Assembly (NCBI GenBank): GCA_963834535.1
Contig: CAWICC010000005.1
Coordinates: 263,743-327,742 of the forward strand
DNA: 64,000 bases
Direction of reading: 5' to 3'
DNA from: an uncultured delta proteobacterium
GTDB taxonomy: Bacteria > Desulfobacterota > Binatia > Binatales > Binataceae
Shown here: positions 583 through 62,908 of the stretch, piece after piece
Position numbering within the stretch: the first letter of the stretch is position 1
How the letters are laid out: each line of letters opens with the position of its first letter
Translations under genes and position numbers: made by a program
Notes under the pieces: model-generated
What the model saw: only the letters and a program-made list of their open reading frames with translations
Databases searched by the model: none
Told to the model about the DNA's origin: nothing

Positions 583-2448
583 ATGGCTCGAATTTTTGGC
601 ATAGACCTTGGCACTACCAACAGCCTGATCGCTGTGATGGAAGACGACAAGCCGCGCGTGATCGCCGATGCCTCCAGCGACAGCGCATTGTTGCCTTCAG
701 TAGTTGCGCTCGCGCCTGACGGCAGGGTTTTCGTCGGCCACGAGGCGATTGCGATGGAGCCGCACCTCAGCGTCGAGCGCGACGGCCGCGTCTCTGCGGT
801 GGATTTTCCTGGCGGCGAGACCGGTGCGGTCGTACGTTCGGTCAAGCGCTACATGGGTCTCGGCGGTACCGAACTTGCCGATGAGGATCGCCGCCGCTAC
901 ACCTTCGCCGACCTCTCCGGCCCGGTGGTGCGCTTCCAGATCGGTTCGCGCACCTATACTCCGCCCCAGATCTCGGCCGAAATCCTGCGCGCCCTTAAGG
1001 CTCGCGCGGAAGCCGCGCTGGATGGCGAAAAGGTCGATCGCGTCGTCGTCACGGTCCCGGCCTATTTCAATGACGGACAGCGCCAGGCTACGAAGGATGC
1101 CGGCCGTCTCGCCGGTCTTGAAGTCGTGCGCCTGGTCAACGAGCCGACCGCGGCGTCGCTCGCCTACGGCCTTAATCAAAAGGCTGAAGGGCGCGTCGCA
1201 GTATTCGATTTCGGCGGCGGCACTTTCGATATTTCCATCCTCAATATCAAGGGCGGCATCTTTGAGGTGCTCGCGACCAACGGCGATACTCACCTTGGCG
1301 GTGACGATCTTGATGGTCTGCTTATCGATGTGATTCTCGATGGCGTGCCTGACGCAACGCGGTCTGATCGCCACGTCTGGAATAGCGCTAGGCTCGTCGC
1401 GGAGGCCGCCAAGAGGCACCTCAGCACAGCTGATCGTGTGGAGTTGAAGCTCGATCTTGCCGATCGCAAGATTGTTCGCACGCTCACTCGCCCCGAGTTC
1501 GATCGGATGGCGGCGCCGCTCATCGATCGCACGCTCGAATGCTGCCGGCGCGCTCTTGCCGACGCCGGCTTGGCCGCGCGTGAGATCGACGCGGTCGTGC
1601 TGGTCGGCGGCTCGACGCGAATGCCGCTGGTGCGCCGTCGCGTGGGCGAGCTCTTCGGCCGTGAGCCCCTCTGCACGCTCGATCCCGACCAGGTCGTAGC
1701 CCTTGGCGCTGCCGTGCAGGCCGGCGTCCTGATGGGTACTCAGGGCGATATGCTGCTGCTTGATGTCGTCCCGCTGTCGCTCGGTATCGAAACCATGGGC
1801 GGCGTGATGGAGCGCCTAATCCATCGCAATACCACCATTCCGACCAGCGCCACCGAAGGCTTTACGACGGCGGTTGACAACCAGACGCACGTCGATGTTC
1901 ACGTGCTGCAGGGCGAGCGCGAACTGGCGCCGGACTGCCGCAGCCTCGCGCGCTTCAAGCTCGGACCGCTCGATGCGCAACCCGCGGGTATGCCTCGTAT
2001 AGAAGTCACTTTCCTCATCGACGCGAACGGAATACTCAATGTTACAGCGCGCGACGAGCGCACCGGCAGTGAGCATTCGGTCGATATCAAGCCCAGTTAC
2101 GGGCTTACGGACGACGATATCGAGCGCATGCTCGAGGAGTCGATCGATTTCGGCGAGCAGGATATCGAACAACGGCTGCTGATCGCGGCGCGCAACGATG
2201 CCGATCAGATTCTGACCGCACTCGAGAAGCAGTTGCGCGAATATGGGGATCTGGTGGACGCGGATGAGCGGCGGCGGATGGCGGATGTGGTGGCGCGTGT
2301 CGAACTCGCGCGCCAGGGCGAGGATCGCGAACTGTTGAGCAAACTCGTCGAAGAACTCAACGAAGTAACCACTCCGTTTGCTGAACGTATTATGGATGGG
2401 GCGATTAAGCTCGCCCTCAAGGAAAAGTCGATCGAGGAGCTTGCTTGA
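583..2448 (+). CDS. hscA: Fe-S cluster chaperone HscA (Hsp70 family)
   Basis: 621 aa with Hsp70 ATPase motifs '[11 protein letters not shown]', 'VTVPAYFND', 'DFGGGTFD' and 'LVGGSTRMP'. It is placed between hscB and iscX. Confidence 0.9.
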
Positions 2449-2539
2449 CAAAAATGAAGGGTGGGTGCATAATGCGCGGCCTCATCGGCAGATCTCATGC
2501 GGACCCCCTCCCGACGTTGTTTAAGGGGGTTAATTCGTA

Positions 2540-2755
2540 ATGAAATTCAAGTGGGACCAGGCGGAAGAGATTGCCGAAGTTCTGGCCGAAAATCATCCCG
2601 GCCTCAATCCGCTGCAAGCGCGATTTACGGATATTCGGCAATGGGTGATCGATCTCGATGAGTTTGGCGACGAGCCGGGCGCTTCGAGTGAAAGCAAGCT
2701 GGAGGCCATTCAGATGGCTTGGCACGAGTTGTACAAGGAAAACAGCGACGACTGA
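2540..2755 (+). CDS. iscX: Fe-S assembly protein IscX (YfhJ)
   Basis: 71-aa acidic protein. 'KWDQAEEIAEVLAENHPGLNPLQARFTDIRQWVIDLDEFGDEP' is colinear with E. coli IscX. Confidence 0.85.
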   Translation: MKFKWDQAEEIAEVLAENHPGLNPLQARFTDIRQWVIDLDEFGDEPGASSESKLEAIQMAWHELYKENSDD

Positions 2756-2798
2756 ATAGACAAAAAGTGTGGAACGTCTTAGATAAGGAGGTGGCGGG

Positions 2799-3416
2799 GT
2801 GGATGCGATGAGGATAGACCAGGGAGCGAAGATGCAGGAAAAGGAAACATTGGACGAGAGATTGCCGGCTCTGTTTGAGCCCGACACCCTTTTGCCCATT
2901 CAATATTTCGAGGCGATGCGCCGCAAGCATTTGCTTGAGGGTGAAAAGCGCCTGATTCTCAGCGTGCTCGAAGACGCGATTGAATGCTTCATGAAGTGCA
3001 TGGACTCGGCCACCAATAAGGGCCAGCGCCTGTATCGTGAGGCCGACGAATGGATTGCCCTCGAAGATAAGCATTGGGTGTTCTCTTTCGACAACGTCTG
3101 CGACATGCTCGACATTAACCCCGAGTACATGCGGCGTGGATTGCGCGACTGGAAACAGCGCAAATTGGAGGCTATACAGCGCGCCGCAGAGGCCAAAGCT
3201 GAGGCGGACGCACGCGCGGAAAGCGACGCTGCGGCCGGTATCGGAACCGAGCCGGTAACGGAGGCCGTCGAGGTGGCTAAGCCCACTGAAGCCCCGCAGC
3301 CGATCGTCGCGCCGGCAGCCAAAACTTTCGCGCCGAGGGCGGTTCAGCGCAAGGGCGTGATGACTGCGCCGGCGCGGTCGGCCTCGCGGAGCAACCTGCG
3401 TAAGGCTCGCGCTTAG
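2799..3416 (+). CDS. Hypothetical protein with a helical N-half and an Ala/Glu/Pro-rich tail
   Basis: 205-aa ORF in the sense direction after iscX, with non-antisense-like composition. I recognise no family. The start is uncertain because there are several in-frame Met codons. Confidence 0.5.
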   Translation: MDAMRIDQGAKMQEKETLDERLPALFEPDTLLPIQYFEAMRRKHLLEGEKRLILSVLEDAIECFMKCMDSATNKGQRLYREADEWIALEDKHWVFSFDNVCDMLDINPEYMRRGLRDWKQRKLEAIQRAAEAKAEADARAESDAAAGIGTEPVTEAVEVAKPTEAPQPIVAPAAKTFAPRAVQRKGVMTAPARSASRSNLRKARA

Positions 3417-3430
3417 TCAGAGCCGCTTGA

Positions 3431-3507
3431 CACCCCTGAGTGCAGGGGTGAGCCGACCATAAATCAAACTGCACGAAGGTGAGGGCGGCCTGCATGGCCG
3501 CCTTCAC
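3431..3507 (+). terminator. Two GC-rich hairpins downstream of the 2799-3416 gene (candidate terminator or RNA structure)
   Basis: Hairpin 1 is CACCCCTG-agtg-CAGGGGTG at 3431-3450. Hairpin 2 is GTGAGGGCGGCC-tgcat-GGCCGCCTTCAC at 3479-3507 with one mismatch. No clear U-tract follows. Confidence 0.35.
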
Positions 3508-3907
3508 TAATTCTGCGCGATGAAGTCACGCAGGTGCCGTCGTCTCCTTCTCCAGTGCGAGTTGGCACAGATTTACGAAGCTCACGCGCGTCGGCATGAG
3601 CCTCCAATAGCTTCGCTTTCTTCGGACCGACCCTCTTTGGGCGGGCGAGTTCGTTCGCTCCACAGTTGCTTTCATCATGGCGCAGCCCAATTTGGTATAC
3701 ACGGTTACCAATTGCGGTGCTTCTATTCCATTGCATCCCGCTTGCTACATCTCGCCTCGATAAATGCTCATCTTTTCACCAATCAAACCACGGCACGCTT
3801 GATGCTCAGTTCTCTTAGTCAGTGAGAGTCGAGGCGGATGGTAAACGTAAACGCGGTTATCTACGTCTTAATCTACAGTGGTCTTAATGAGCAGGAGGTA
3901 TCCGGTC

Positions 3908-4528
3908 GTGATTTCAAAGAAATCGATTGTAGCGTGGGTCTTCTCCGCGATTGTCAGCGTGGGGATGTTTGCGGTGCCCGGCCGGGCGCTGGCAGAGGAT
4001 TGGGGCCATGGTCACGGCTGGCACCATAGCGACGATGGCGGCGGCTGGCATGGCTGGGACAATCATCATCGGGACGATCAATGCGCACGCCCTGGCTATC
4101 GTCCTCAGGCCTATGGATATCGACGGCCTTATGCCCAAGGCTGGAATATGCCAGCGTATAATTATGGCCAGCAGGGCTATGGCTACAACTACAATCAGCC
4201 CGCGTATGGCTATAACTACAACCAGCCGGCCTATGGTTATAACAACTATCGCCCCGGCTACGGCCTCCCGGCCGATGGCCAGGGGATGATCGATCGCCGC
4301 CACCCAGGCCTGATGTGGACTTGTGACTCGGGCGGGCATCATTGCCACTGGGCGCCGCGCTTCGGCTACGGAGCGAATTCGCGCACCGGTCTGAATCCTT
4401 TCGCATACGGTGGGCTGAATAACGGTTACAATGGTGGCCGCTACTACGGTAACAACTACGCGAATGGCTACTATGGAAACTCGGGCATGGGTTCGCTGCT
4501 GGGACCGCTCTTCGGACAGCGCCCGTAG
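3908..4528 (+). CDS. Secreted low-complexity protein with a His/Trp-rich head and a Gly/Tyr/Asn-rich body
   Basis: AGGAGG at 3893-3898 lies 9 nt before GTG 3908. The signal peptide is 'ISKKSIVAWVFSAIVSVGMFAVPGRALA-ED'. The mature part contains 'WGHGHGWHHSDDGGGWHGWDNHH' followed by GYNYNQPAY repeats. The ORF track starts earlier, at 3878. Confidence 0.7.
   Translation: MISKKSIVAWVFSAIVSVGMFAVPGRALAEDWGHGHGWHHSDDGGGWHGWDNHHRDDQCARPGYRPQAYGYRRPYAQGWNMPAYNYGQQGYGYNYNQPAYGYNYNQPAYGYNNYRPGYGLPADGQGMIDRRHPGLMWTCDSGGHHCHWAPRFGYGANSRTGLNPFAYGGLNNGYNGGRYYGNNYANGYYGNSGMGSLLGPLFGQRP
4181..4261 (+). repeat. Three tandem 27-nt in-frame repeats encoding GYNYNQPAY / GYNYNQPAY / GYNNYRPGY
   Basis: The units are ggctacaactacaatcagcccgcgtat (4181-4207), ggctataactacaaccagccggcctat (4208-4234) and ggttataacaactatcgccccggctac (4235-4261). 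Confidence 0.85.
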
Positions 4529-4556
4529 TTCTCGACTGATACCTGAGCGCCAAACT

Positions 4557-4590
4557 AAAAACGCCCCGCCAACCCGGCGGGGCGTTTTCT
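4557..4590. terminator. Bidirectional rho-independent terminator between convergent genes
   Basis: AAAAA-CGCCCCGCC-aaccc-GGCGGGGCG-TTTTCTTTTC. The 9-bp GC stem is flanked by an A-run and a T-run. Confidence 0.85.
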
Positions 4591-4629
4591 TTTCTCCCTC
4601 TCAAATCGCTTGTGCGTCCTCGGTCACGC

Positions 4630-5634
4630 TCACCAATTCGATGCTAGATTTTCGATTGCCTTCAGGATGCGCGTGCGCCTCTGTGCGGAATCGGGTGCGA
4701 ACGAGGTGAACTGCAGCGTGCTGGTCGTGATGCCCGCCCGTTCGAATTCGTGCAGTCGTTTCGCTATGCGATCTGGTGAGCCGAGTACGTAAAGCGCCTC
4801 GACCATGCTCTGTGGAATCGATTGAAGCGCTTGCTTGCGATCGCCTGCGTTCCAGGCCTCCAGGGCGCCGCGGGCCTCATTCTCGAAACCGATCTCGCGA
4901 AAGAACTTGTTGTACTGCGGCACGGTGACGTAGGCGGTAAGTTCGCGCCTCAGATTCTCGCGTACGATTTCCTCTTCGGGGTCAACCGCAACCTGGATGC
5001 GGCAGCAGATGTCGATATTGTCAGTCGGCTTGCCGGCACTCCGCGCGCCCTCGCGAATATGCTCCAGCAGCGGGCCGAAGGTCTCCGGTGTGATGTAGTT
5101 GACGATCACTCCGTCGCCGATCTCACCTGCTGTACGCAGCATCAGCGGCCCCTGCGCACCGACGTATATCGGCGGCGCCGGTTCCACTGGTCCCGAAAGC
5201 CGGAACCCATTGACGTGTACGGTCTTGCCCGACGTCGTGACCTTTTGTCCCGTGAACATTGCGCGCAGCGCCTCCACCGTCTCGCGCAGGCGCGTCACCG
5301 GCATCTTGTACGGCACCCCCATCCATTGTTCGACGATGGTCGGCGTCGAGATGCCGACGCCCAGAATAAAGCGGCCGCCCGAGATCCGTTGCAAGGTCGC
5401 CGACGAGATCGCGATCAACGCCGCCGGCCGCGTGAAGACCGGCACGATCGCGGTGCCGAGGCGCATTTTTTCACTCGCTAACGCGGCGGCCCCTAGTGGT
5501 ACGAAAGCATCGCCGTGAAAGGTTTCGTAGGACCACGCGTCTGTGAAGCCGGCGCGCTCCGCATGCCGCACCAGTTCGCCGAAGTGCGGATTCTGAAAGC
5601 CGTCGAGAGGTACTGTAATTCCAAGTCGCATCAT
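4630..5634 (-). CDS. LLM-class (luciferase-like) F420/flavin-dependent oxidoreductase
   Basis: 'MMRLGITVPLDGF...FTDAWSYETFHGDAFVPL...GGRFILGVGIS' is typical of the LLM family. The start is set at the internal ATG-ATG (5634), because the upstream part of the 388-aa ORF is Arg-rich junk. Confidence 0.8.
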   Translation of the reverse strand: MMRLGITVPLDGFQNPHFGELVRHAERAGFTDAWSYETFHGDAFVPLGAAALASEKMRLGTAIVPVFTRPAALIAISSATLQRISGGRFILGVGISTPTIVEQWMGVPYKMPVTRLRETVEALRAMFTGQKVTTSGKTVHVNGFRLSGPVEPAPPIYVGAQGPLMLRTAGEIGDGVIVNYITPETFGPLLEHIREGARSAGKPTDNIDICCRIQVAVDPEEEIVRENLRRELTAYVTVPQYNKFFREIGFENEARGALEAWNAGDRKQALQSIPQSMVEALYVLGSPDRIAKRLHEFERAGITTSTLQFTSFAPDSAQRRTRILKAIENLASNW

Positions 5635-8722: not shown

Positions 8723-9769
8723 TTATGCCGCCGGTGGGACAATCGCGATCTTTCCCGCGATCGTGCTCGTTTCCATCAGGTCCTGCGCCTTTCCCAGTTC
8801 TTTCAGCGCCAGCACCTGCCCGACCACCGGCTTGATATGACCGCTCTCGACGAACCGCATCGCGTCGATCAATTCGCCCTTATTTCCCAGATGCGATCCC
8901 AGGTAGTTCTGCTGCTTGTTCCACAACAGCCGGATATCCAGATGCGCATCGAAGCCCGAGGTCGCTCCGCACGTCACGATGGTGCCGCCCCACTTGAGGC
9001 ACTGCATCGAGATCGGCCACGTCTCCGCCCCCGTATGCTCGAACACGATATCCGCCCGCCGGCCGTCGGTGATCTTCCGCACTTCCTGAAAGATGTCGTG
9101 CTTCTTGCGATGCAGCACGAACTCCGCGCCCAGCTTCTTGCACAGTTCGAGTTTGTCGTCGGCCGACGCCACCGCTATCGCACGCGCGTTGAACAGCTTT
9201 GCGATCTGGATCGCCATTACGCCGAGTCCGCCCGCCGCTCCCCAGACCAGTACGAAGTCGCCCGCCTGGATATGCGCCCGCGATACCAGCATGCGCCACA
9301 CCGTCACCAGCACCAGCGGAATCGTCGCTGCTTCCTCAAAGCTCAAATTCGGCGGTTTCGGCAGCGTGTTGACCGCCGGCACCCTGCAATACTGACCATG
9401 CGCGCCGTCCAGCGGTCCGGTCTGAAAGCCCCAAATCCGGAAGTCCGGGCAGAAGTACTCCTCGCCCCGCGTGCAGTAATAGCATTGCCGGCACGAGATT
9501 CCGCAATGGACTACCACCTCGTCGCCGACCTTGACGTTTTTTACCTCGCTGCCGATATCCACCACGATGCCCGCCGCGTCCGATCCCGAGATATGCGGCA
9601 GGATGATCTTCATCCCCGGCAGCCCGCGCCGCGCCCAGATATCGTTGAAGTTGCAGGCCGAGGCCTTCACGTTGATCACGGCATCGTTGGGGCCGGCCTT
9701 CGGTATCGGCGTATCCCGATACTGCAGAACCTCGCATCCTCCGTGCTGCTCGAAAACAATCGCCTTCAT
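8723..9769 (-). CDS. Zinc-binding MDR-superfamily dehydrogenase (alcohol dehydrogenase / enoyl-thioester reductase-like)
   Basis: 'MKAIVFEQHGG...', a structural-Zn motif 'CRQCYYCTRGEEYFC' and the Rossmann motif 'VWGAAGGLGVMAIQ'. The 'ACNFNDIW' segment resembles the Ccr-like subgroup. Confidence 0.75.
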   Translation of the reverse strand: MKAIVFEQHGGCEVLQYRDTPIPKAGPNDAVINVKASACNFNDIWARRGLPGMKIILPHISGSDAAGIVVDIGSEVKNVKVGDEVVVHCGISCRQCYYCTRGEEYFCPDFRIWGFQTGPLDGAHGQYCRVPAVNTLPKPPNLSFEEAATIPLVLVTVWRMLVSRAHIQAGDFVLVWGAAGGLGVMAIQIAKLFNARAIAVASADDKLELCKKLGAEFVLHRKKHDIFQEVRKITDGRRADIVFEHTGAETWPISMQCLKWGGTIVTCGATSGFDAHLDIRLLWNKQQNYLGSHLGNKGELIDAMRFVESGHIKPVVGQVLALKELGKAQDLMETSTIAGKIAIVPPAA

Positions 9770-10107
9770 GCAAATGCCTTCTCTTGGCCGCATTCGCATA
9801 GGCGCGAACCAGCCGGGTTAAACGAAAGAAAATTATATGTTCCTGCCAGCCTTAACAACAGTCTCATTTTTGCGCCGCTCGCGGCTTTTCCGCGCCCGGT
9901 TGACCTGCGCAACCGAATCTCGTAAATAAGCGGCAACGGTATACCCCGCTTCGTAGCTGTTCCCGCGCTCGCAACGCATCGCCATTCCGCCCGTTAATCA
10001 CGCCGCCGGATGGAGCCAGCGCGTTTCTGCCACGCACCTCAAATGCGCCTTGGCAATCGTCCGGCAGCGGCTGGCATCCGTGATTTTTCACTATCGGAGA
10101 CACTCCC

Positions 10108-11144
10108 ATGTTCGTCCTGGATAACGGTAAACGCTTCGTAATTCCGCGCACCGAGATGACCTATCCCGGGCATAGCCTCAAGCTCCACCAGAATGCCGCC
10201 GACCCGGTGAAGTCGCCGGTTGACCACGTGATGGCGGATTTTGAGGACGCCTGCCCCTACGAGTTCAAAGGCGAGAAAAGCCGCAAAATTATGGTCGAGG
10301 CCCTCAACACTCTCGACTTCGGCAAAAAGGTCGTCACGATTCGCCCCAACAACATCCATTCCCCGTTCTTCAAGGGCGATATCGAGGCCATCGTGCTCGG
10401 CGCGCCCAACCGCTTTCACGGCATCATCCTGCCCAAAACCCGCGGCCCCGAGGAGATTCGCGAAGTCTCCAGGCTGCTCGACGACCTCGAAAAGCGCGCC
10501 GGATGGAAGTCGAAGATCCAGATCGAATCGCTGATCGAAACCCCCCACGCGCTCATCAAGGCTTACGAAATCGCCACCGCCTCCGATCGCATGGCCGGGC
10601 TGATTTTCGGCATCGCCGACTATGCCGCCAACCTCGGCATCCGCGAGATCGTCGAGAATCAGAATCAGAATTTCCACTACTCCAAGCAGGCCGTGGTCGT
10701 CGCCGCCAAGGCCGCCGGCCTCCACGCGGTCGATAACGTCTACCTGCGCCTGTGGCGCAAAGAGGATTCGCCGAGCGCGTCGCCGAACTCCAGGCCGGCT
10801 TGCGCGAGAAGAACCAGGGCGCCGCGGATCTCGGCATGGACGGCACCTGGGTCATCCATCCGCAACAGGCCGAAATCTGCAATAGCTGTTACACGCCGAA
10901 TCAGACCCAGGTCGATTACGCCCGCCGCATCATCAAGCTCTACCACGAGAAGGGCGGCGGCTCGATGGCGGATCCCGCTACCGGCGAGATGATCGACGAG
11001 GCCACCATCAAGATCGGCCTGATGGATCTCGCCAAGGGCGCACAGGCCGGCATGGTCAACGCCGCCGAACTCGCCGACTGGTCCGCCAAGAGCAAGGCCA
11101 TCACCGGCTACGACATCCTCGAGTTGATGCGCCGCACCGCCTGA
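10108..11144 (+). pseudogene. HpcH/HpaI-CitE family (citryl/malyl-CoA lyase-like) gene with one frameshift near 10745-10790
   Basis: The N-part 'MADFEDACPYEFKGEKSRK...IESLIETPHAL...FGIADYAANLG' is in the frame of 10108. The C-part 'GMDGTWVIHPQQAEICNSCY...' continues in the frame of 10752. The two halves are colinear with one CitE-like protein. Confidence 0.7.
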
Positions 11145-11322
11145 CCCCGCAGTGCCTCAGATCGCTTTACGAGGGTGCCTCTCATCGCTTTCCTGAGGGC
11201 GCAGCGCGCATCTCCCAAAGGGGAATACTGAAACCTCGCGGAGGTTTCAGTATTCGTGAAAGCTTTAAAGTTCCTCGAAGTGGGGCAGCGGGGCGGGAGC
11301 GCTGCGCTCCCGCCCACTTCCC

Positions 11323-12549
11323 CTATAGCAGGTTGTACGCGCGCGCGACGTTCTCGCCCAGCACTCCGCGCCGGGCGCTCGTCGTCATCCCTTCGACCAT
11401 TCCGCGCAGCTCCTCGATATAGTCCCCCGGATGGTCCGGATGCGGATAATCCGACGCCCAGAAGAAGCGGTCCTCGCCGATTATCTTCGTCAGCGGCGCG
11501 ATCGATCGCTCGTCCGGATCGCCTGAGATGTAACACTGCCGCTTGAAGTAGAACGACGGCCGCTCCTTCAACTGGACCGTGCCGCCGAGCCCCGTGCGCC
11601 GATAGATTGCGTCGCCCCGATCGAGCCAGTAGCCGATCCAGCCCGCCCCCGATTCGAGCACCACCGTGCGCAGCCGCGGGAAGCGATCGAAGACGCCGTA
11701 CTGGAACATCGTGCCGAACGCGTGGCCCACGCCTTGCGCCGCGAACAGGTCGAAAAACCAGTCGGCCCAGTCCATGTTGTCGAACCGCTGATGCACTCCC
11801 CACGCCGGCGGCTCCAGCGTCGGATGGATCGCGAAGGGAATCCCCAGGTCCTGCGCCGCCGCGAAAACCGGGTCATGATCGACATGCCCATGCGGTTTGC
11901 GCGTGATCGTGAACGGGCACACGAACGCGCCCTTGCAGCCGTCCTTCACCGCGCGTTCCAGCTCGCGCGCCGCCGCCGCCGGATCGCCCAGCGAGATATG
12001 CGCAATCGGAATCAGCCGCCCGCCCGAGTCGCGGCAGAAATCCGCAATCCATCGATTGTATGCGCGGCAGTACGCGTCCGAGAGCTCCGCGTCGAATACT
12101 TCGGCTTCCCACAGCAGCCCGATCGTCGGATAGAGCACCGATTTCGCCATGCCCTCGGTTTCCAGCAGCGACAGCCGCTCCTTCATATCCATCGCGCCGT
12201 ACGCCGCCCCGCCCACATACGACTCGACCGTTTCGACGCCCTCGAGGCTGTCGAACACCCGATGTTTCTCGCCCGACCGCGACTTCAGCAACTCGCGCCG
12301 CGACGCATTAACATCCTCGACTTTCGCGCCCAGCTCCTGCAGCTTCTTCATCCCGCCGAGCGACGCCAGCAGCGTCGGGCTGGTCAGCGCCGATCGCTTG
12401 TTGTCGAATTCAAGATATTCGCGCTTGTCGTCGCCGACTTTGATCCGGATCGCGCGATCGCGAAATTTGGCTTCGAGGTTCTTTTCCCACAGGTCGGGCG
12501 GTTCCAGGATATGTCCGTCCGCGTCGATCAACAGCTCTTCTACGGCCAT
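11323..12549 (-). CDS. Amidohydrolase-2 family metal-dependent hydrolase/decarboxylase
   Basis: 'LIDADGHILEPPDLW' is the N-terminal metal-binding motif and '...WASDYPHPD' the C-terminal motif. The start is set at 'MAVEELLIDADGH'. Confidence 0.75.
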   Translation of the reverse strand: MAVEELLIDADGHILEPPDLWEKNLEAKFRDRAIRIKVGDDKREYLEFDNKRSALTSPTLLASLGGMKKLQELGAKVEDVNASRRELLKSRSGEKHRVFDSLEGVETVESYVGGAAYGAMDMKERLSLLETEGMAKSVLYPTIGLLWEAEVFDAELSDAYCRAYNRWIADFCRDSGGRLIPIAHISLGDPAAAARELERAVKDGCKGAFVCPFTITRKPHGHVDHDPVFAAAQDLGIPFAIHPTLEPPAWGVHQRFDNMDWADWFFDLFAAQGVGHAFGTMFQYGVFDRFPRLRTVVLESGAGWIGYWLDRGDAIYRRTGLGGTVQLKERPSFYFKRQCYISGDPDERSIAPLTKIIGEDRFFWASDYPHPDHPGDYIEELRGMVEGMTTSARRGVLGENVARAYNLL

Positions 12550-57042: not shown

Positions 57043-57420
57043 TTACCAGCGGCCGCCGCCACCACCTCCGCCACGGCGATCGCGTCCACCACCACCGCCC
57101 CCACCTCCGCCGCGAGGACCACCATAGCCGCCACCACCGCCGCCGCCGCGAGGACCACCACCACCGCCGCCTTCGCGGGGACGCGCCTCGTTGACGCGGA
57201 TGTTGCGGCCCTTGAGTTCGGTTTCGTTGAACTCCTCGATCGCTCGTGCGGCGTCGTTCGAGTCAGCCATCTCGACGAATCCGAAGCCGCGCGACTGTCC
57301 CGAAAACTTGTCGACTACGACCACCGCGCTGTCAACCTTGCCGGCCTGGGAGAATAATCCTTCCAGGTCTTCGTTGGTCACCGAGTAGGCCAAATTGCCT
57401 ACGTACAATTTAGTGGGCAT
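57043..57420 (-). CDS. RRM-type RNA-binding protein with a Gly/Arg-rich tail
   Basis: RNP2 is 'LYVGNL' and RNP1 is 'RGFGFVEM'. The 45-aa tail is almost pure Gly with RGG units. Confidence 0.9.
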   Translation of the reverse strand: MPTKLYVGNLAYSVTNEDLEGLFSQAGKVDSAVVVVDKFSGQSRGFGFVEMADSNDAARAIEEFNETELKGRNIRVNEARPREGGGGGGPRGGGGGGGYGGPRGGGGGGGGGRDRRGGGGGGGRW

Positions 57421-57924: not shown

Positions 57925-59541
57925 TTGACATATGAGACCATGCAGGGTTCACTCGGAGTTGTGTCGAACCCTCCGGTGAGCGAAAAGATCCCACCGTGGT
58001 TGCTATGGCAACGCCTGAACCGGTCGGAAGTCTTCGAGAGCTTTAGCGACGACCAGCGCGACGCGTTTCTGAAAGCTTATGAAAATGAGCCGGGCATGCG
58101 TATGCGCGCCTTCAAAACCGGCGCTACGATTTGCCGCCAGGGCGAGTACGAATTGGACTTGTGTTTTATCCTGAGCGGCGCGGTCAACCTGATAGACCAC
58201 CTGGGCGAAGACGACCAGGCCTTCGTGGTCGCCCTCGAAGCCGGCGACATCTATGGTGAGCTTGGTGCGATCGGTGGCCTGCCGCGTTCGGTGGATATCG
58301 TCGCCCGCACCGATGCGGAAATCTTTTATGTTCCCCGTCACGCGCTCAAATATATCGAAGTCAACAACGGGGCGCGTGAGATCCTCGCCCGGCGCTATCG
58401 CGAACGCGCCGTGCGCCTTATAGCAAGTCACGTCGAGTTGTTCCGCGGCGTCCCGCGAACCTTCGTCGATGAGCTGATTCCGAAATGTGAGATTCTGCGC
58501 TACGAGTTGCGCGGTATTCCATTGGTAACGCAAGGGGAACCTGGTGACGCCCTCTACATCGTGCGCGATGGCTTCGTTCAAGTCGCGCGCGAGGAGCCCG
58601 ACGGCAGCCGTCGCGTACTCGCCTATCTCCGCGCCGGCGAATATTTCGGCGAAATGGCCTTGTTCGAGACCGGGTTGCGCTGGGCCAGCGTATTGACCGC
58701 CGGCAAGTGCGAGCTGATCAAGATCATGCGCGACGACTTTCTCGACTTATGCCGTCAGTATCCGCAGATCGAAGCCTCCGCGCGCAAGGTTATCAAACTG
58801 CGCTTTGAGCAGGAGCGCACCGTTACCCCCGAAATCTCCGAACTACTCGAACGCAGCGGACAACTCGGTGTCATTCAGGCTGACGCGCTGCTGGTGATGG
58901 ACCTTGACCTTTGTATCAAGTGCGACGAATGCGTTAAGGCGTGTGAGTCGCTGCACGGTGAGAGCCGCCTCATCCGCAACGGTATCCAGCTCGGCAAATA
59001 TCTCGTCCCGAGTGCGTGTCGCCATTGTGACGATCCCAAATGCATGAACAGTTGCCCCACCGGAGCAATCAAGCGCCGCCCGGAAGGTGAGATCTATTTC
59101 CAGTACGACATGTGCATCGGCTGCGGCAACTGCGCGATCGCATGCCCTTACGACAACATCGCGATGATCGACACTCCCACCTTCGACCAGGCGCAGGCGC
59201 GCAAGTCGCACGCGATGAACGACGCGACCTTCTTTCGACCCTATCCGCTCGCCGCGCACGATGTCGCTGAGACCGGATTGTGGAAACGGCTGTTTAATCC
59301 GGGCGGCGGGCACGCGCGGCCGCAGGGTCCGACCGGCTCCCCGGAGGCGCACGATTACGAACACATCCCCGCGGCTTTTCCGATCAAGTGCGATTTATGT
59401 GACGGACTGCCGTTCATGGGTTGTGTGCATAACTGCCCCACCGGCGCCGCGATCAGGATCGATCCCGCAAAATTGTTCGCCGAGACTGGCGCGGTCAGTG
59501 CCGGTTCGCGCGTGCGCAAGGCGCGCGGTGGCAGTGATTAG
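57925..59541 (+). CDS. Cytoplasmic protein with two cyclic-nucleotide-binding domains and a four-cluster [4Fe-4S] ferredoxin domain
   Basis: The cNMP-like segments are '...GDIYGELGAIGGLPRSVDIVA' and '...GEYFGEMALFETGLRWASVLTA'. The Cys motifs are CIKCDECVKAC, CRHCDDPKCMNSCP, CIGCGNCAIACP and CDLC..(8)..CVHNCP. There is no signal peptide. The start is TTG 57925 or ATG 57940. Confidence 0.8.
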   Translation: MTYETMQGSLGVVSNPPVSEKIPPWLLWQRLNRSEVFESFSDDQRDAFLKAYENEPGMRMRAFKTGATICRQGEYELDLCFILSGAVNLIDHLGEDDQAFVVALEAGDIYGELGAIGGLPRSVDIVARTDAEIFYVPRHALKYIEVNNGAREILARRYRERAVRLIASHVELFRGVPRTFVDELIPKCEILRYELRGIPLVTQGEPGDALYIVRDGFVQVAREEPDGSRRVLAYLRAGEYFGEMALFETGLRWASVLTAGKCELIKIMRDDFLDLCRQYPQIEASARKVIKLRFEQERTVTPEISELLERSGQLGVIQADALLVMDLDLCIKCDECVKACESLHGESRLIRNGIQLGKYLVPSACRHCDDPKCMNSCPTGAIKRRPEGEIYFQYDMCIGCGNCAIACPYDNIAMIDTPTFDQAQARKSHAMNDATFFRPYPLAAHDVAETGLWKRLFNPGGGHARPQGPTGSPEAHDYEHIPAAFPIKCDLCDGLPFMGCVHNCPTGAAIRIDPAKLFAETGAVSAGSRVRKARGGSD

Positions 59542-59732
59542 AGCGTCGCGGGCAAGACTGGGCGGAGATAGGCGTGCTCGTCGCGGAAATCTCGACAAAC
59601 ATCTTCGATGATGGTTTGGTTCGTCAATCTTCCGCCAGGAGGGCGGCAATGGGAGTGTGGCACTGCGGGGTAACGGTCGCGCTAATTCAGCAGCTCGGCC
59701 TGATCGACCTGGCTTGACCAGATGATACGCGG

Positions 59733-60632
59733 GTGAGAGAGCAGATAGGCGACGCCTCTGACCGGCGTCATACAGCGCCGATCGCGTCGGTGACATTGTG
59801 GGTGGTGATCTGCGGTGCGGTGGTCCTTGCCATACACGCCGCCACCGCCATTATTCCAGCGCGCCTCGGCTCATATCGCACTGGCATCATCACTCTTCTC
59901 ACCTTCCTGCTGGCTGCGATTTACAGCGTTCGCAAGCATACTCTATGGCTCTCCGTGCGATGGCTCCGTCTGGCCTCACGCCTGCCGCGTTCATTTGCTC
60001 GCCGGCTGGTTCTGATGGATCGCCTCGAGACCTGGCGCACCCTCCACATCACGATCGGAATGCTGGCGCTATTGCCGTTCTGGTGGCACGTCGATGCGGG
60101 CCGCGCGACCATCTTGGAACGCGCGCTCGAAAGCACCGTTATCCTCGTCATTCTGAGCGGCTTCTGCGGTGTGTTAATTCACGATTTGCTGCCCCGCGCC
60201 ATGCGCGTTCGGCCCAATCAGGAGGTTCGGCTCGAGGATGTAGAGGCGGCCTACCATCAGCTTTACTTCGAGGCCGAGGAAGCGATCCTTGGACATTCGG
60301 AGGCTTTGGTTAAGGCCTACCTGAAAAACGTCCGGCCGCTGCTGATCGGGGAGCAGCCAGCAGCCCGTTTGGCGTGGGCTACGCTTCGCGGGAGCGATCC
60401 GTCGCCGCGGGCTTGCCGGACGGCGTTGCGTGATGCCACCTCGGTCGGGAGCGACGAACCGATCTACCGCGATCTGGTCGAGGTCGCCGCGCGCAAGGTG
60501 CGGCTGGAACTCAATCAATTTAATCTGCGACTCGGTACCGTCTGGCTCAAATTTCACATCGCGCTCGTCATGATCATGGGTATCGAGATCCTCTTTCATG
60601 TCACTGGCGTGCTTTATTTCGTGGGCTTTTGA
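59733..60632 (+). CDS. Five-TM membrane protein with two H-x13-H helices (putative di-heme cytochrome b)
   Basis: TM3 is 'LH105ITIGMLALLPFWWH119' and TM5 is 'FH275IALVMIMGIEILFH289', each with exactly 13 residues between the His residues. Its stop overlaps the next start (ATGA at 60629-60632). The start codon is uncertain. Confidence 0.6.
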   Translation: MREQIGDASDRRHTAPIASVTLWVVICGAVVLAIHAATAIIPARLGSYRTGIITLLTFLLAAIYSVRKHTLWLSVRWLRLASRLPRSFARRLVLMDRLETWRTLHITIGMLALLPFWWHVDAGRATILERALESTVILVILSGFCGVLIHDLLPRAMRVRPNQEVRLEDVEAAYHQLYFEAEEAILGHSEALVKAYLKNVRPLLIGEQPAARLAWATLRGSDPSPRACRTALRDATSVGSDEPIYRDLVEVAARKVRLELNQFNLRLGTVWLKFHIALVMIMGIEILFHVTGVLYFVGF

Positions 60633-62908
60633 TGCGGCGCAGCGCCTTCATACTGGCCGGCGTCGTGATCGTGCTCGCGGTGTTCGTGCTCGCGCGCCGC
60701 CAGAGCTATCAACCCGGCGAACTGATGGCTGCTCACGATAACCTCCGCGGACAGTGCGCCGATTGTCATCAGCCGTGGCACGGTCCAGCGACTGATCGCT
60801 GCGTTGCCTGCCATGGCGACATCGCCGACGTCAATCCTCATGGCGGCTACGATGTAACCAACGACAGTGGACTGATCGCCGGCCGCACGCTCCACTTCCT
60901 CACCCGCGACAACGAAATCACTTGCCTCAGTTGCCATACCGAACATCGCGGCCGCGTGGTCGATCTGAACACCACGGCGACTTTCAATTGCGCGTGGTGC
61001 CATCAGCATCCCTCGATCCAAGGCGTCGACGAGCACAACGCTCCGATTATGAAGCGCGGCGTTACCGCGCGCACCGCGTTCGTACAGCAGTTCAATCACT
61101 TCGAGCACAAGTTGCTGATCGAATCGCGCTACCCGGCCTATCCCGGCGGGTTCAAGTGCGAATCATGCCACAACCTGCCCCCAACGTCGTCGCAGAATCC
61201 CGATCGGATGAGTTTTCGCTGGTCCGGATGTGCGGGCAGCGGATGTCATCTGGCGCCCCAGGATTCCTTCATGCAGTTGCCGGCCGCGGTCGGGCCGTCG
61301 CCGAAGTTGATTGCGTACACGGCGACGGTTCTTCACATGAACACCGTCTTCGCGCATTCGGCCGGCCATCTCCAGACGCCTTGCGAAACCTGTCACTTTT
61401 CGACGCCGGCCAGCAAGGCTCCCAACGATGCCGCCTCGAAGCAGGTCGAGAATTGTTTCAAATGCCACGCCCATCAGGCGGCCCCGCCTGTTAGCGCGAA
61501 TCCGAGCGTGCGGGCGACTTTGAACTGGATCGGGACGGGAACTGCCTTTGCGGCTGCGCCCATCGCCAGCGGCAGGAGTGTTACCGCCTGCGGTGAATGT
61601 CATCTGTTCCACCTTCACGGACCGTTGATGAAGAACGACTTTGTCGGGACGGCGCCCGAAGCATTGCCCAACGCCAAACCTCATCTGACATGGACCGTCT
61701 TTATGCCAACGATCGACCGCGCGCGCGGCGTCGGTCTCCGCCCAATGCGGATTTCGCCCTGGCTGCTCGGATGGTTCGGCTTGCTCGCCGCCGGCCTCTG
61801 CGGCTTCGGCCTGGTGCGCCTGATGCCATCCAAGGTGGCTGATCGCGAAGTAGTCGCCGGGGTTGCCCCGCAGCGCACCCATGAAATTCCTCTGATCGAC
61901 GACACCTATCAGACCAGCGTGCGCCACCTTTACATCATCGGCGAAGCCTCCGGCACCGCGTCGATCAACCTCGCGATGCGTTCCGGCCGCCAGGTGATTG
62001 AGGCCATAGTCGCCGAATTGAAGCACTCTCGCCCGCCGGTCGACCCAGCCGTGTACGACGTCGTAATCGTCGGCTGCGGTCCCGCCGGCCTCGGCGCCAC
62101 CGCGACGGCGCGAGCCGCCGGGCTCAATTACGTGACGCTGGAAAGAATGACGCCGGCGTCCACGCTGCGCGCCTATCCACGTGCGAAGTTCGTCCAGGCC
62201 ACGCCTATCGACATTGCCGAATACGGATCGTTCTTTTTGGAGGGCGACAACTCCCGCGAGGACCTCATCCATGAGTGGGAGCGGATCATCGCCACCCTGG
62301 GACTCAAGATTAACGATCGCGAGGAAGTCGTTGGCGTATCGCGTGACGACGATATTCTGACAGTCGAGACCGCGCGCGGTAACCGCTACAGAACGCGATC
62401 GGTGGTGCTCGCAATCGGCGTGCGCGGAAATGCCCGTCATCTCAATCTTCCCGGCGAGCAAGCCGGCCGCGTCTTCTATACCCTTATCGAACCCTCCGAA
62501 TTCCAGAATCGAAAGATCCTGGTTGTTGGCGGCGGCAACGCCGGCGCAGAAGTCGCTCAAGCGCTCGCCGCCGCGGCCCTGGGCAACCAGGTTAGCTATT
62601 CTTTCCGCGCCCCGGTGCTGTCCAGCATCACGCGCGAAAATGCCGAGAAAATCAGCGACCTGCAGCGCTCCGGACTGCTTACCCTCTATCCAGGCACGAT
62701 GCTCAAGGAGATCATGCCGGGCCGGGTCGTGCTCGATCCGGCGAACGATACCGGCGTCAAATCGACTTCCCCGCGTGACGCTCCGGAAGGCCCTGTCGAG
62801 ATCGACAACGAGATCATCTTTGCGATGATCGGCGCCGAACTGCCGACCGCGTTTCTCCGGCAGATCGGCGTTAAGCTGGTGAGCAAGGGCCGTCTTGGCT
62901 TGAGCTGA
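60629..62908 (+). CDS. Fusion protein: N-anchor, periplasmic multiheme cytochrome c, TM helix and cytoplasmic FAD/NAD(P)-dependent oxidoreductase
   Basis: There are eight CxxCH motifs (CADCH, CVACH, CLSCH, CAWCH, CESCH, CETCH, CFKCH, CGECH) and one CAGSGCH. The TM helix is 'WLLGWFGLLAAGLCGFGLV'. The dinucleotide folds are 'VVIVGCGPAGLGA' and 'ILVVGGGNAGAEVA'. Confidence 0.8.
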   Translation: MMRRSAFILAGVVIVLAVFVLARRQSYQPGELMAAHDNLRGQCADCHQPWHGPATDRCVACHGDIADVNPHGGYDVTNDSGLIAGRTLHFLTRDNEITCLSCHTEHRGRVVDLNTTATFNCAWCHQHPSIQGVDEHNAPIMKRGVTARTAFVQQFNHFEHKLLIESRYPAYPGGFKCESCHNLPPTSSQNPDRMSFRWSGCAGSGCHLAPQDSFMQLPAAVGPSPKLIAYTATVLHMNTVFAHSAGHLQTPCETCHFSTPASKAPNDAASKQVENCFKCHAHQAAPPVSANPSVRATLNWIGTGTAFAAAPIASGRSVTACGECHLFHLHGPLMKNDFVGTAPEALPNAKPHLTWTVFMPTIDRARGVGLRPMRISPWLLGWFGLLAAGLCGFGLVRLMPSKVADREVVAGVAPQRTHEIPLIDDTYQTSVRHLYIIGEASGTASINLAMRSGRQVIEAIVAELKHSRPPVDPAVYDVVIVGCGPAGLGATATARAAGLNYVTLERMTPASTLRAYPRAKFVQATPIDIAEYGSFFLEGDNSREDLIHEWERIIATLGLKINDREEVVGVSRDDDILTVETARGNRYRTRSVVLAIGVRGNARHLNLPGEQAGRVFYTLIEPSEFQNRKILVVGGGNAGAEVAQALAAAALGNQVSYSFRAPVLSSITRENAEKISDLQRSGLLTLYPGTMLKEIMPGRVVLDPANDTGVKSTSPRDAPEGPVEIDNEIIFAMIGAELPTAFLRQIGVKLVSKGRLGLS

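Follow-up and report, generated by a model that had tools for sequence, protein, structure and literature searches.

Known routes of extracellular and periplasmic electron transfer start either at the quinone pool (CymA, ImcH, CbcL and NapC) or at flavinylated proteins. A 2023-24 preprint gives a gene-level description of ptdABCDEFG, a putative porin-cytochrome cluster whose function its authors call completely unknown (bioRxiv 10.1101/2023.11.21.568154). It comprises a pentaheme cytochrome, a porin, a flavin adenine dinucleotide (FAD)/NAD(P) oxidoreductase, a tetraheme cytochrome, a 4Fe-4S protein that binds cyclic nucleotide monophosphates (cNMPs), a ferric-reductase-like membrane protein and a decaheme cytochrome, and is found in marine Alpha- and Gammaproteobacteria, Nitrospirales and Planctomycetes. 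Here we analyze three genes at positions 57925-62908 of a 64,000-nucleotide stretch (henceforth the window) of contig CAWICC010000005.1, assembled from an uncultured delta proteobacterium of the Binataceae (GCA_963834535.1). The trio is a variant of this barely described kind of system, relatives of which are widespread. Its most likely function, and one that we regard as probable, is that of a single cytoplasmic-membrane complex moving electrons from NAD(P)H to the periplasm and bypassing the quinone pool. The three genes are as follows.

57925..59541 (+): gene 1, cytoplasmic protein of 538 amino acids (aa), two cNMP-binding-like domains and a four-cluster [4Fe-4S] ferredoxin, PtdE-like
59733..60632 (+): gene 2, membrane protein of 299 aa with five transmembrane (TM) helices and four invariant His, predicted di-heme b, PtdF-like
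60629..62908 (+): gene 3, TM anchor, nonaheme c domain, second TM helix and a circularly permuted FAD/NAD(P)H flavoprotein

We set the window beside the published ptd cluster by component description and made the sequence comparison with ptd-like metagenome loci such as L118, the composition of which fits ptd, including a candidate porin. The window shares with ptd an FAD/NAD(P)-binding oxidoreductase, a cNMP-binding 4Fe-4S protein (PtdE), a ferric-reductase-like membrane protein (PtdF) and periplasmic multihemes. Unlike ptd, it has no pentaheme (PtdA), porin (PtdB) or separate decaheme (PtdG), its nine-heme c domain is fused to the flavoprotein, the flavoprotein is membrane anchored and circularly permuted, and the host belongs to the soil Binatia, whereas the ptd hosts are marine or saline. 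Furthermore, the window ferredoxin is a separate protein, whereas most ptd-like loci fuse it to the flavoprotein. Gene 1 and the cNMP-ferredoxin portion of the fusion protein in L118 are 31% identical (E = 2e-58), the heme modules match at 5e-5, and gene 2 matches its L118 counterpart at the profile level, pairwise BLAST between the two being not significant. By these comparisons, the trio is a Binatia variant of the ptd type of cluster that is limited to its inner-membrane core, lacks the porin and has its modules rearranged. Our literature searches returned no description of such a gene set besides the ptd preprint. An earlier reading of this DNA from its letters alone (the sequence-only reading) had proposed an undescribed system; the trio is indeed uncharacterized, but wholly undescribed is too strong, as the preprint lists the same component types. 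Within L118 itself, the candidate PtdB-like porin is encoded between pentaheme genes at positions 3432-5093; it has 553 aa, starts with a signal peptide, ends in Phe, lacks Cys and belongs to no Pfam family.

In the list of open reading frames (ORFs) of the window, the three co-directional ORFs lie exactly where the sequence-only reading had drawn them, and ORFs, Pfam and motif scans bear out the domains that it had assigned: two cNMP-like domains and four Cys motifs with no export signal in gene 1, five hydrophobic helices, two of which carry H-x13-H, in gene 2, and an anchor, 8 CxxCH plus 1 CxxxxCH, a second TM helix and two GxGxxG motifs in gene 3. Genes 1 and 2 are separated by a 191-nucleotide untranslated gap (59542-59732), in which neither an RNA family (Rfam) nor a terminator-like site was detected, and genes 2 and 3 overlap. 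The overlap had been read as ATGA at 60629-60632; the coupling by overlap stands, but the letters are TTGA (context TTGATG), with the TGA stop of gene 2 at 60630-60632. Gene 3 has 759 aa if it starts at the TTG at 60629, which gives a 4-base overlap with the gene 2 stop, and 758 aa if it starts at the ATG at 60632, which gives a 1-base overlap (TGATG). The ATG is the more likely start because a 99%-identical database protein (P0121) has 758 aa and the relatives L012 and L013 overlap by one base. Translational coupling of the two genes stands with either start codon.

The evidence that the three genes act together comes from their conserved order and from their fusions. In a scan with one genome per species, the order gene 1-gene 2-gene 3 is kept in all 35 assessable Binatia-type loci, as it is in loci at just 53-56% identity. 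The genes downstream of the trio vary between loci, so the unit comprises three genes. In other lineages the genes are fused pairwise. Proteins of about 800 aa (P0246, P0247, P0249 and P0345) unite genes 1 and 2 by their Pfam content, and in loci L005 and L006 such a fusion is followed by a heme c/flavoprotein gene. In L009, an FHA×2-cNMP-ferredoxin is followed by the membrane protein and then by a tetraheme-TM-flavoprotein. In four further loci (L047, L048, L054 and L063), from Latescibacterota, Planctomycetota, a deltaproteobacterial metagenome-assembled genome and Hyphomicrobiaceae, the gene-2-like protein adjoins a protein of 435-450 aa that combines a TM helix, two [4Fe-4S] motifs and the flavoprotein, with separate 9- to 20-heme multihemes close by; in L063, the gene-2-like domain continues into eight CxxCH motifs within one polypeptide. 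Every module pairing is thus found fused somewhere, namely, ferredoxin-membrane protein, flavoprotein-ferredoxin, membrane protein-multiheme c and, in the window itself, multiheme c-flavoprotein. This Rosetta-stone evidence argues strongly that the four co-traveling modules (flavoprotein, ferredoxin, four-His membrane protein and anchored multiheme c) would form one complex. Chance adjacency of the trio is rejected by the synteny and the fusions.

The family extends well beyond the Binatia. A gene 2 profile made from Binataceae sequences only picked out 434 relatives among 1.8 billion representative proteins and recovered, with E = 1e-12 to 1e-7, a family of about 270 aa encoded beside cNMP-ferredoxins. 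A metagenome scan seeded with the gene 1 family yielded 80 loci, dominated by a type in which a flavoprotein-cNMP×2-ferredoxin fusion of about 800 aa is followed by a gene-2-like protein of about 290 aa and a decaheme of about 570 aa, often with pentahemes upstream. The flavoprotein and the cNMP-ferredoxin are fused in about 59 of these 80 loci. In 56 of the 75 that could be assessed, the gene-1-like gene either has a gene-2-like gene immediately after it or is itself fused to one. One contig (L147) carries two pairs of flavoprotein-ferredoxin fusion and gene-2-like gene in opposite orientation (1748-5143 and 8883-12266). Seven loci (L101, L105, L110, L115, L122, L132 and L135) combine a 1230-1900-aa decaheme, a pentaheme and the flavoprotein-cNMP-ferredoxin fusion with no gene-2-like gene detected nearby; a hidden hydrophobic H-x13-H was looked for in the large decahemes of loci of this kind, and none was found.

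Gene 2 is the membrane component and the most divergent of the three. A hydropathy scan and an AlphaFold model agree on five TM helices, and a motif scan places the H-x13-H pairs at residues 105/119 and 275/289.

60024..60098 (+): TM3; H105 codon at 60045-60047, cytoplasmic side; H119 codon at 60087-60089, periplasmic side
60183..60527 (+): cytoplasmic helical domain, residues 151-265; probable docking platform for the ferredoxin
60534..60620 (+): TM5; H275 codon at 60555-60557; H289 codon at 60597-60599

Among 97 unique sequences from the fetched loci, H105 and H119 are present in all, H275 in 96 and H289 in 95, the remainder being gaps, and both spacings are exactly 13 in 95 sequences. The identity of these relatives to the window protein is mostly 17-25% (median 22%) and goes down to about 17%, and the only invariant columns in 96 aligned relatives are H105, H119, G143, G146, W271, H275 and H289. 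W271 occurs in 96 of the 97, and W101 and G109 are near-invariant. An AlphaFold model from a deep alignment reached a mean predicted local distance difference test score (pLDDT) of 91.5 and a predicted TM-score (pTM) of 0.85; an initial model from 27 close sequences had reached 70.7, and a Foldseek search of the PDB with it was uninformative. The deep model has helices at residues 127-158, 167-185, 190-205, 210-219 and 229-296, and in it the helical cytoplasmic domain would continue into TM5 as a single 68-residue helix, with a predicted Arg-rich amphipathic cytoplasmic stretch between TM2 and TM3. The protein lies with its N terminus inside and its C terminus outside, because this is the orientation given by the positive-inside rule, by the gene 1 fusions (cytoplasmic N terminus) and by the L063 fusion (periplasmic C terminus). 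TM3 and TM5 are hence parallel, with H105 and H275 in the inner leaflet and H119 and H289 in the outer leaflet, which is how the ligands of two b hemes are placed when these are stacked, each between two His. Metal transport by the four His was considered and rejected, as pairs about 20 Å apart on parallel helices would make heme geometry and not one metal site.

Gene 2 matches no Pfam or NCBIfam family above threshold. The sub-threshold Pfam matches of its 96 relatives are concentrated in DUF4405 (38 relatives; best E = 2e-6), cytochrome b561 (22), Ferric_reduct (15; best E = 3.4e-6) and DUF4079 (8), and any other family is matched by at most 4. The NOX-like comparison drawn by the sequence-only reading is apt in this respect, since nearly all of the weak matches go to three di-heme cytochrome b families, namely, Ferric_reduct, DUF4405 and cytochrome b561. 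For one DUF4405 protein, heme b binding has been demonstrated with the purified protein (PMC11334425). We conclude that gene 2 probably belongs to the di-heme trans-membrane cytochromes b, as a branch that has diverged far and is novel in structure, with heme b as the predicted cofactor.

Several well-studied systems offer parallels to this arrangement. In NOX2, NOX5, SpNOX and the Fre/FRO ferric reductases, as proposed for the trio with its predicted gene 2 hemes, electrons pass from NAD(P)H through FAD and two stacked bis-His b hemes to the outside; the His pairs likewise lie on TM3 and TM5 with a 13-residue spacing (12-14 apart in NOX), and regulatory domains are present, as in NOX5 and DUOX. 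In contrast, gene 2 has five TM helices, not six, no above-threshold Ferric_reduct match and no Foldseek neighbor, and it ends after TM5; its flavoprotein is of the TrxR/YpdA type (Pyr_redox) and is supplied in trans on gene 3, whereas NOX has a fused C-terminal FNR-type domain. The trio further inserts a four-cluster Fe-S wire between flavin and heme, and its acceptor would be a c-heme chain and not O2 or Fe(III). The MsrQ (YedZ)-Fre pair also splits a cytoplasmic NAD(P)H flavoprotein from a membrane heme b protein that feeds a periplasmic partner, but MsrQ has six TM helices, its partner MsrP is a soluble Mo enzyme and neither an Fe-S protein nor c hemes are involved. By analogy, the trio would resemble NOX and MsrQ-Fre in mechanism, yet it departs from them in several of the features by which their members are recognized. 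In DUF4405/PepSY-like proteins (FoxB), four central His are likewise the most conserved residues, and DUF4405 is the commonest weak Pfam match of the family; however, DUF4405 proteins have six TM helices and associate with ApbE-flavinylated extracytosolic proteins, the window protein itself has no DUF4405 match, and only the gene 2 family has the large insert of cytoplasmic helices that separates TM4 from TM5. The Tmc and Hmc complexes and the Geobacter CbcL/Cbc systems also bring together periplasmic multiheme c, membrane di-heme b and Fe-S proteins, but those link to quinones or DsrC, have neither an NAD(P)H flavoprotein nor cNMP domains, and use membrane subunits of the NarI/HdrE, NrfD and HybB families.

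Gene 1 combines regulatory and electron-carrying modules. Pfam cNMP_binding (PF00027) matches in two stretches with E = 7.5e-38 (128.8 bits versus a gathering cut-off of 27.5), several 4Fe-4S dicluster models match, including Fer4_7 and the DmsB-type Fer4_11, and no Tat- or Sec-like signal can be read at the N terminus.

58102..58410 (+): cNMP-binding-like domain A, about residues 60-162; cassette YGELGAIGGLPRSVDIVA; matches to PKA/PKG regulatory domains in the PDB over residues 58-162
58459..58809 (+): cNMP-binding-like domain B, about residues 179-295; cassette FGEMALFETGLRWASVLTA; best Pfam stretch 197-279
58888..59469 (+): four-cluster ferredoxin domain, residues 322-515; Cys groups at 330, 365, 397 and 489

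The Cys groups follow the patterns CxxCxxCxxxC (at 330 and 397), CxxCx4CxxxC (at 365) and CxxCx8CxxxC (at 489), and all 16 Cys are invariant in an alignment with nine diverse relatives. With the Fe-S subunits of the complex iron-sulfur molybdoenzyme (CISM) family (DmsB, NrfC, HybA and NarH), gene 1 shares the four Cys groups, their spacing pattern and the Fer4_11 match. It differs from them in the absence of a Tat signal, in the N-terminal cNMP domains, which are unique to the gene 1 family, and in scoring far below the NCBIfam equivalog cut-offs: its similarity to DmsB, DsrO, HybA, NrfC and CRP is sub-threshold throughout, the best equivalog being DmsB with 66.2 bits against a cut-off of 214.1. 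No gene for a molybdoenzyme, the usual CISM partner, occurs in any inspected neighborhood.

Turning to the regulatory half, domain B has CRP-family matches in the PDB over residues 158-296. Taking the canonical phosphate-binding cassette as G-E-x-A-L…R-[AST]-A-[ST], alignment shows that domain A (GEL…PRSVD) retains the Gly-Glu and Arg-Ser and then has Val-Asp where Ala-Thr is expected, and domain B reads GEM…LRWAS. The relatives in L011 and the ptd-like L118 have canonical cassettes (PRAAT, RRAAT or PRTAT), with PRAAT or PRTAT at domain B. Judging from these motifs, binding of a cNMP ligand is likely for the family and uncertain for this particular gene 1. A CHASE2-guanylate/adenylate cyclase gene (3111-5279) lies 5 kb upstream of the fused gene 1-gene 2 system in L005. 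FHA (phosphothreonine-binding) domains recur among the relatives (L009, 5794-8004; L040, 2800-5007; L118, 11310-13007; L104, 5878-9498), placed N terminally on cNMP-ferredoxins, at the cytoplasmic N terminus of a decaheme and in four copies on a heme/flavoprotein fusion. Their recurrence on gene 1 homologs and decahemes points to a possible additional, phospho-dependent layer of control.

Gene 3 joins a periplasmic multiheme chain to a flavoprotein. The hydropathy scan gives TM helices at residues 4-22 (the anchor) and 378-396, so that the CxxCH region falls between two membrane passages.

60734..61612 (+): periplasmic multiheme c domain, residues 36-328; 8 CxxCH and 1 CxxxxCH
61751..61816 (+): second TM helix, residues 375-396; returns the chain to the cytoplasm; position conserved in the alignment
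61886..62008 (+): displaced C-terminal FAD-binding element, residues 420-460, YIIGEASG…INLAMRSGRQVIEAI
62054..62893 (+): FAD and NAD(P)H Rossmann domains, residues 476-755; YpdA/TrxR-like, with no redox-active CxxC

The CxxCH motifs lie at residues 43, 58, 99, 121, 177, 252, 276 and 321 and the CxxxxCH motif at 201. This heme motif set is not due to chance, since gene 3 is the sole ORF of the window with at least two CxxCH motifs and every motif is kept in relatives. Pfam recovers Cytochrom_c3_2 (4e-8; 33.9 bits, cut-off 25) and Cytochrome_C7 (27.8 bits, cut-off 24.8) in this region, and its N-terminal tetraheme module has homologs among the multihemes that all the other cluster types carry beside gene-2-like genes (E = 1.6e-13 to 1e-3). 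The flavoprotein side is predicted to be cytoplasmic because relatives fuse this domain to the cytoplasmic ferredoxin. It matches Pyr_redox_3 (8e-27), has GxGxxG motifs at residues 482 and 634, and has as its nearest PDB relatives YpdA/Bdr (7a76 and 7a7b) and TrxR-type ferredoxin-NADP reductases (2zbw, 3ab1 and 5twb), with which it shares two dinucleotide-binding domains and the lack of a CxxC disulfide. Unlike these, it is membrane tethered, fused to a multiheme cytochrome and, as argued below, permuted; NCBIfam YpdA (TIGR04018) scores 107.9 bits against a cut-off of 339.9, over profile positions 1-263 of 316. The Joint Genome Institute (JGI) label of thioredoxin reductase was rejected, as there is no CxxC, and C483 in GCGPAG is the only Cys in residues 400-759.

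The permutation emerges from alignment with the normal-order flavoprotein of L118. Residues 476-752 of gene 3 align to positions 6-275 of that protein (29% identity, E = 4e-26), and residues 420-460, upstream of the first GxGxxG, align to positions 281-321, its terminal FAD-binding element (E = 3e-5), with G438, E439, G442, N447, S452 and G453 invariant in the alignment. The gene 3 flavoprotein (61886-62893) is hence circularly permuted, the terminal FAD-binding β-α element preceding the first Rossmann motif, which explains why the YpdA and Pyr_redox_3 profiles end early at the C terminus. The Arg that follows the second Rossmann strand (SFR) is conserved and suggests that NADPH may be the substrate. 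The permuted flavoprotein also occurs in about 40 genomes (L049-L089, e.g., L064, 5857-8244) of Acidobacteriota, Verrucomicrobiota, Calditrichia, Planctomycetota, Myxococcota, Latescibacterota and others, as a fusion of about 770 aa with a polytopic NapH/CcoG-like (Fer4_5) Fe-S membrane domain, which is likely to be another NAD(P)H-to-membrane module.

Domain content, motif conservation, synteny, fusions and the logic of the topology allow a mechanism to be proposed, in which cofactor occupancy, NAD(P)H use, direction of flow, quinone independence, the cNMP ligand and the physiological acceptor are predictions. NAD(P)H would reduce the FAD bound at the cytoplasmic end of gene 3, in its C-terminal domain, which is of the TrxR/YpdA type with no redox disulfide and resembles the TrxR-type ferredoxin:NADP reductases. 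Single electrons would then enter a chain of about 40 Å made of the four [4Fe-4S] clusters of gene 1, which would dock onto the cytoplasmic helical domain of gene 2. Within the membrane, they would cross two stacked b hemes, one bound by H105/H275 on the cytoplasmic side and one by H119/H289 on the periplasmic side, and the outer heme would pass them to the membrane-anchored nine-heme c domain of gene 3 and from there to a periplasmic or extracellular acceptor. In the Binatia, a periplasmic partner (for example, a soluble cytochrome c leading to an oxidase) would be as plausible as an extracellular one, because the window holds no porin and no further cytochrome. Gating of the flow would fall to the two cNMP-type domains of gene 1 and, where relatives have them, to FHA domains; it is proposed because unregulated export would drain reductant and membrane potential. 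An electron that leaves an inside-negative cell from -320 mV for c-type hemes moves downhill on both counts, and outward flow is favored because the redox span and the membrane potential both drive electrons out. The path from NAD(P)H/FAD through Fe-S clusters and two b hemes to c hemes is that of the sequence-only reading, and we judge it the best supported and probably correct.

Of the conditions that the sequence-only reading had named as able to refute it, all those open to computation came out in its favor, namely, the four His conserved across the 96-97 relatives, the order kept in the Binatia and the topology. A number of observations weigh against the path, or against parts of it. The sequence-only reading had placed gene 2 with the bis-His cytochromes b, and while profile and remote-homology comparisons found families for genes 1 and 3, gene 2 has no significant neighbor in PDB sequences or folds. 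The window protein itself matches DUF4079 alone in Pfam (E = 0.03); its profile returns noise from PDB sequences; a global Foldseek search of the PDB with the pLDDT 91.5 model has a best E of 1.6 and TM-scores of at most 0.31, with no cytochrome b among the matches, so that a NOX/MsrQ fold is not confirmed; and hhalign comparison of the family with single sequences of Escherichia coli MsrQ (E = 0.18, the aligned stretch being the His-bearing helix) and YodB (E = 0.75) is not significant. Given these results, membership in the di-heme b superfamily rests on the sub-threshold matches. About a quarter of gene-1-like loci have no adjacent gene-2-like gene. As regards regulation, the phosphate-binding cassettes of gene 1 are non-canonical (PRSVD and LRWAS), although Gly-Glu and Arg are retained, and neither a class III cyclase nor a further copy of the modules turned up when the window was searched for them. 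Gene 2 may hold a quinone site, Hmc/Tmc-type assemblies of b hemes, c hemes and Fe-S proteins can also carry electrons inward, and our literature searches found no biochemical work on any family member.

Some of these points lead to other explanations, of which coupling to quinones is the one to be taken most seriously, unlikely as we hold it to be. Gene 2 would then be a quinone-reactive cytochrome b like FdnI, NarI, CybH or CbcL and no direct trans-membrane wire would exist, with the flavoprotein and ferredoxin acting as an NAD(P)H:quinone reductase and/or quinol reducing heme c. The weak matches of 22 of the 96 relatives to Ni_hydr_CYTB, the family of the quinone-binding prokaryotic b561 cytochromes, are consistent with this, as is the established fact that four-cluster ferredoxins of the CISM type, to which gene 1 is related by its NCBIfam similarities, normally partner quinone-reactive anchors. 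However, in all cluster types the gene-2-like domain is fused or adjacent to a conserved tetraheme c module, which suggests direct transfer from b to c heme. Moreover, invariance in gene 2 is confined to four His, two Gly and one Trp, with no conserved polar signature of a quinone site, and the strongest weak matches, DUF4405 and Ferric_reduct, are both to through-membrane wires.

Inward flow, from periplasmic or extracellular donors through the c hemes to cytoplasmic NAD(P)+ or another flavoprotein substrate, has a precedent in Tmc/Hmc of sulfate reducers, and the ferredoxin:NADP reductase chemistry of the PDB relatives is reversible. Nonetheless, the membrane potential opposes it, and donors below about -450 mV would be needed to reduce NAD(P)+ at -320 mV, whereas neither a hydrogenase nor a formate dehydrogenase is encoded in the neighborhood; we consider this direction improbable, even though ptd-like clusters are reported in nitrite oxidizers, which need reverse electron flow (10.1101/2023.11.21.568154). 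The least probable of the alternatives is a sensor that would report the periplasmic redox state or the cNMP level through its Fe-S, heme and cNMP/FHA domains with no bulk flux. Signaling domains are certainly enriched, with two cNMP domains in gene 1, FHA in relatives, the CHASE2-cyclase near L005, and histidine kinase and GGDEF-EAL genes near L118, but Pfam finds no output domain (helix-turn-helix, kinase or cyclase) on any protein of the trio, thirteen to fourteen redox cofactors in a wire-like arrangement with an NAD(P)H site far exceed what a sensor needs, and the large multiheme and porin partners of related clusters point to flux. A wire from NAD(P)H to the c hemes remains our preferred explanation.

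The surroundings of the trio in the window code for hydrolases, a CoA-transferase and an RRM protein. The last of these is a glycine-rich RRM RNA-binding protein encoded on the opposite strand at 57043-57420 (-), divergently from gene 1 across a 500-nucleotide intergenic region, and this divergent gene is kept in the Binatia loci L001-L004; an Rfam search of the region was without match. More generally, an Rfam search and promoter and terminator scans of the 56.8-64 kb interval gave nothing. Farther away, positions 34001-36000 have a G+C content of 0.51 against about 0.60 elsewhere in the window and may be a foreign insert.

We therefore regard the core mechanism as probable and offer a broader formulation more tentatively, as a possibility just short of even: the trio would be the core, in its smallest form and with no porin, of a widespread NAD(P)H:multiheme-cytochrome oxidoreductase under second-messenger control. 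Through Fe-S clusters and a new five-TM di-heme b fold, it would connect the cytoplasmic pyridine nucleotides directly with periplasmic or extracellular acceptors, bypassing quinones. It would thus amount to a bacterial NOX extended by iron-sulfur clusters and fitted with a c-heme outlet, a class of respiratory module spread over Binatia, Planctomycetota, Latescibacterota, Nitrospirota and marine Proteobacteria. For the databases, the analysis corrects two widespread labels, namely, thioredoxin reductase for gene 3 and hypothetical protein for gene 2. The compact three-gene form suits heterologous expression, where the five-TM, four-His protein could be tested as a new trans-membrane cytochrome b, and it could show whether cyclic nucleotides switch an electron-transport chain directly at the protein level. 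If the proposal is true, a direct, regulated link from NAD(P)H to multihemes would constitute a different entry point for electron export and, for many uncultured lineages of soils and the sea, would change the way in which redox balance, the reduction of metals and "overflow" respiration are modeled.

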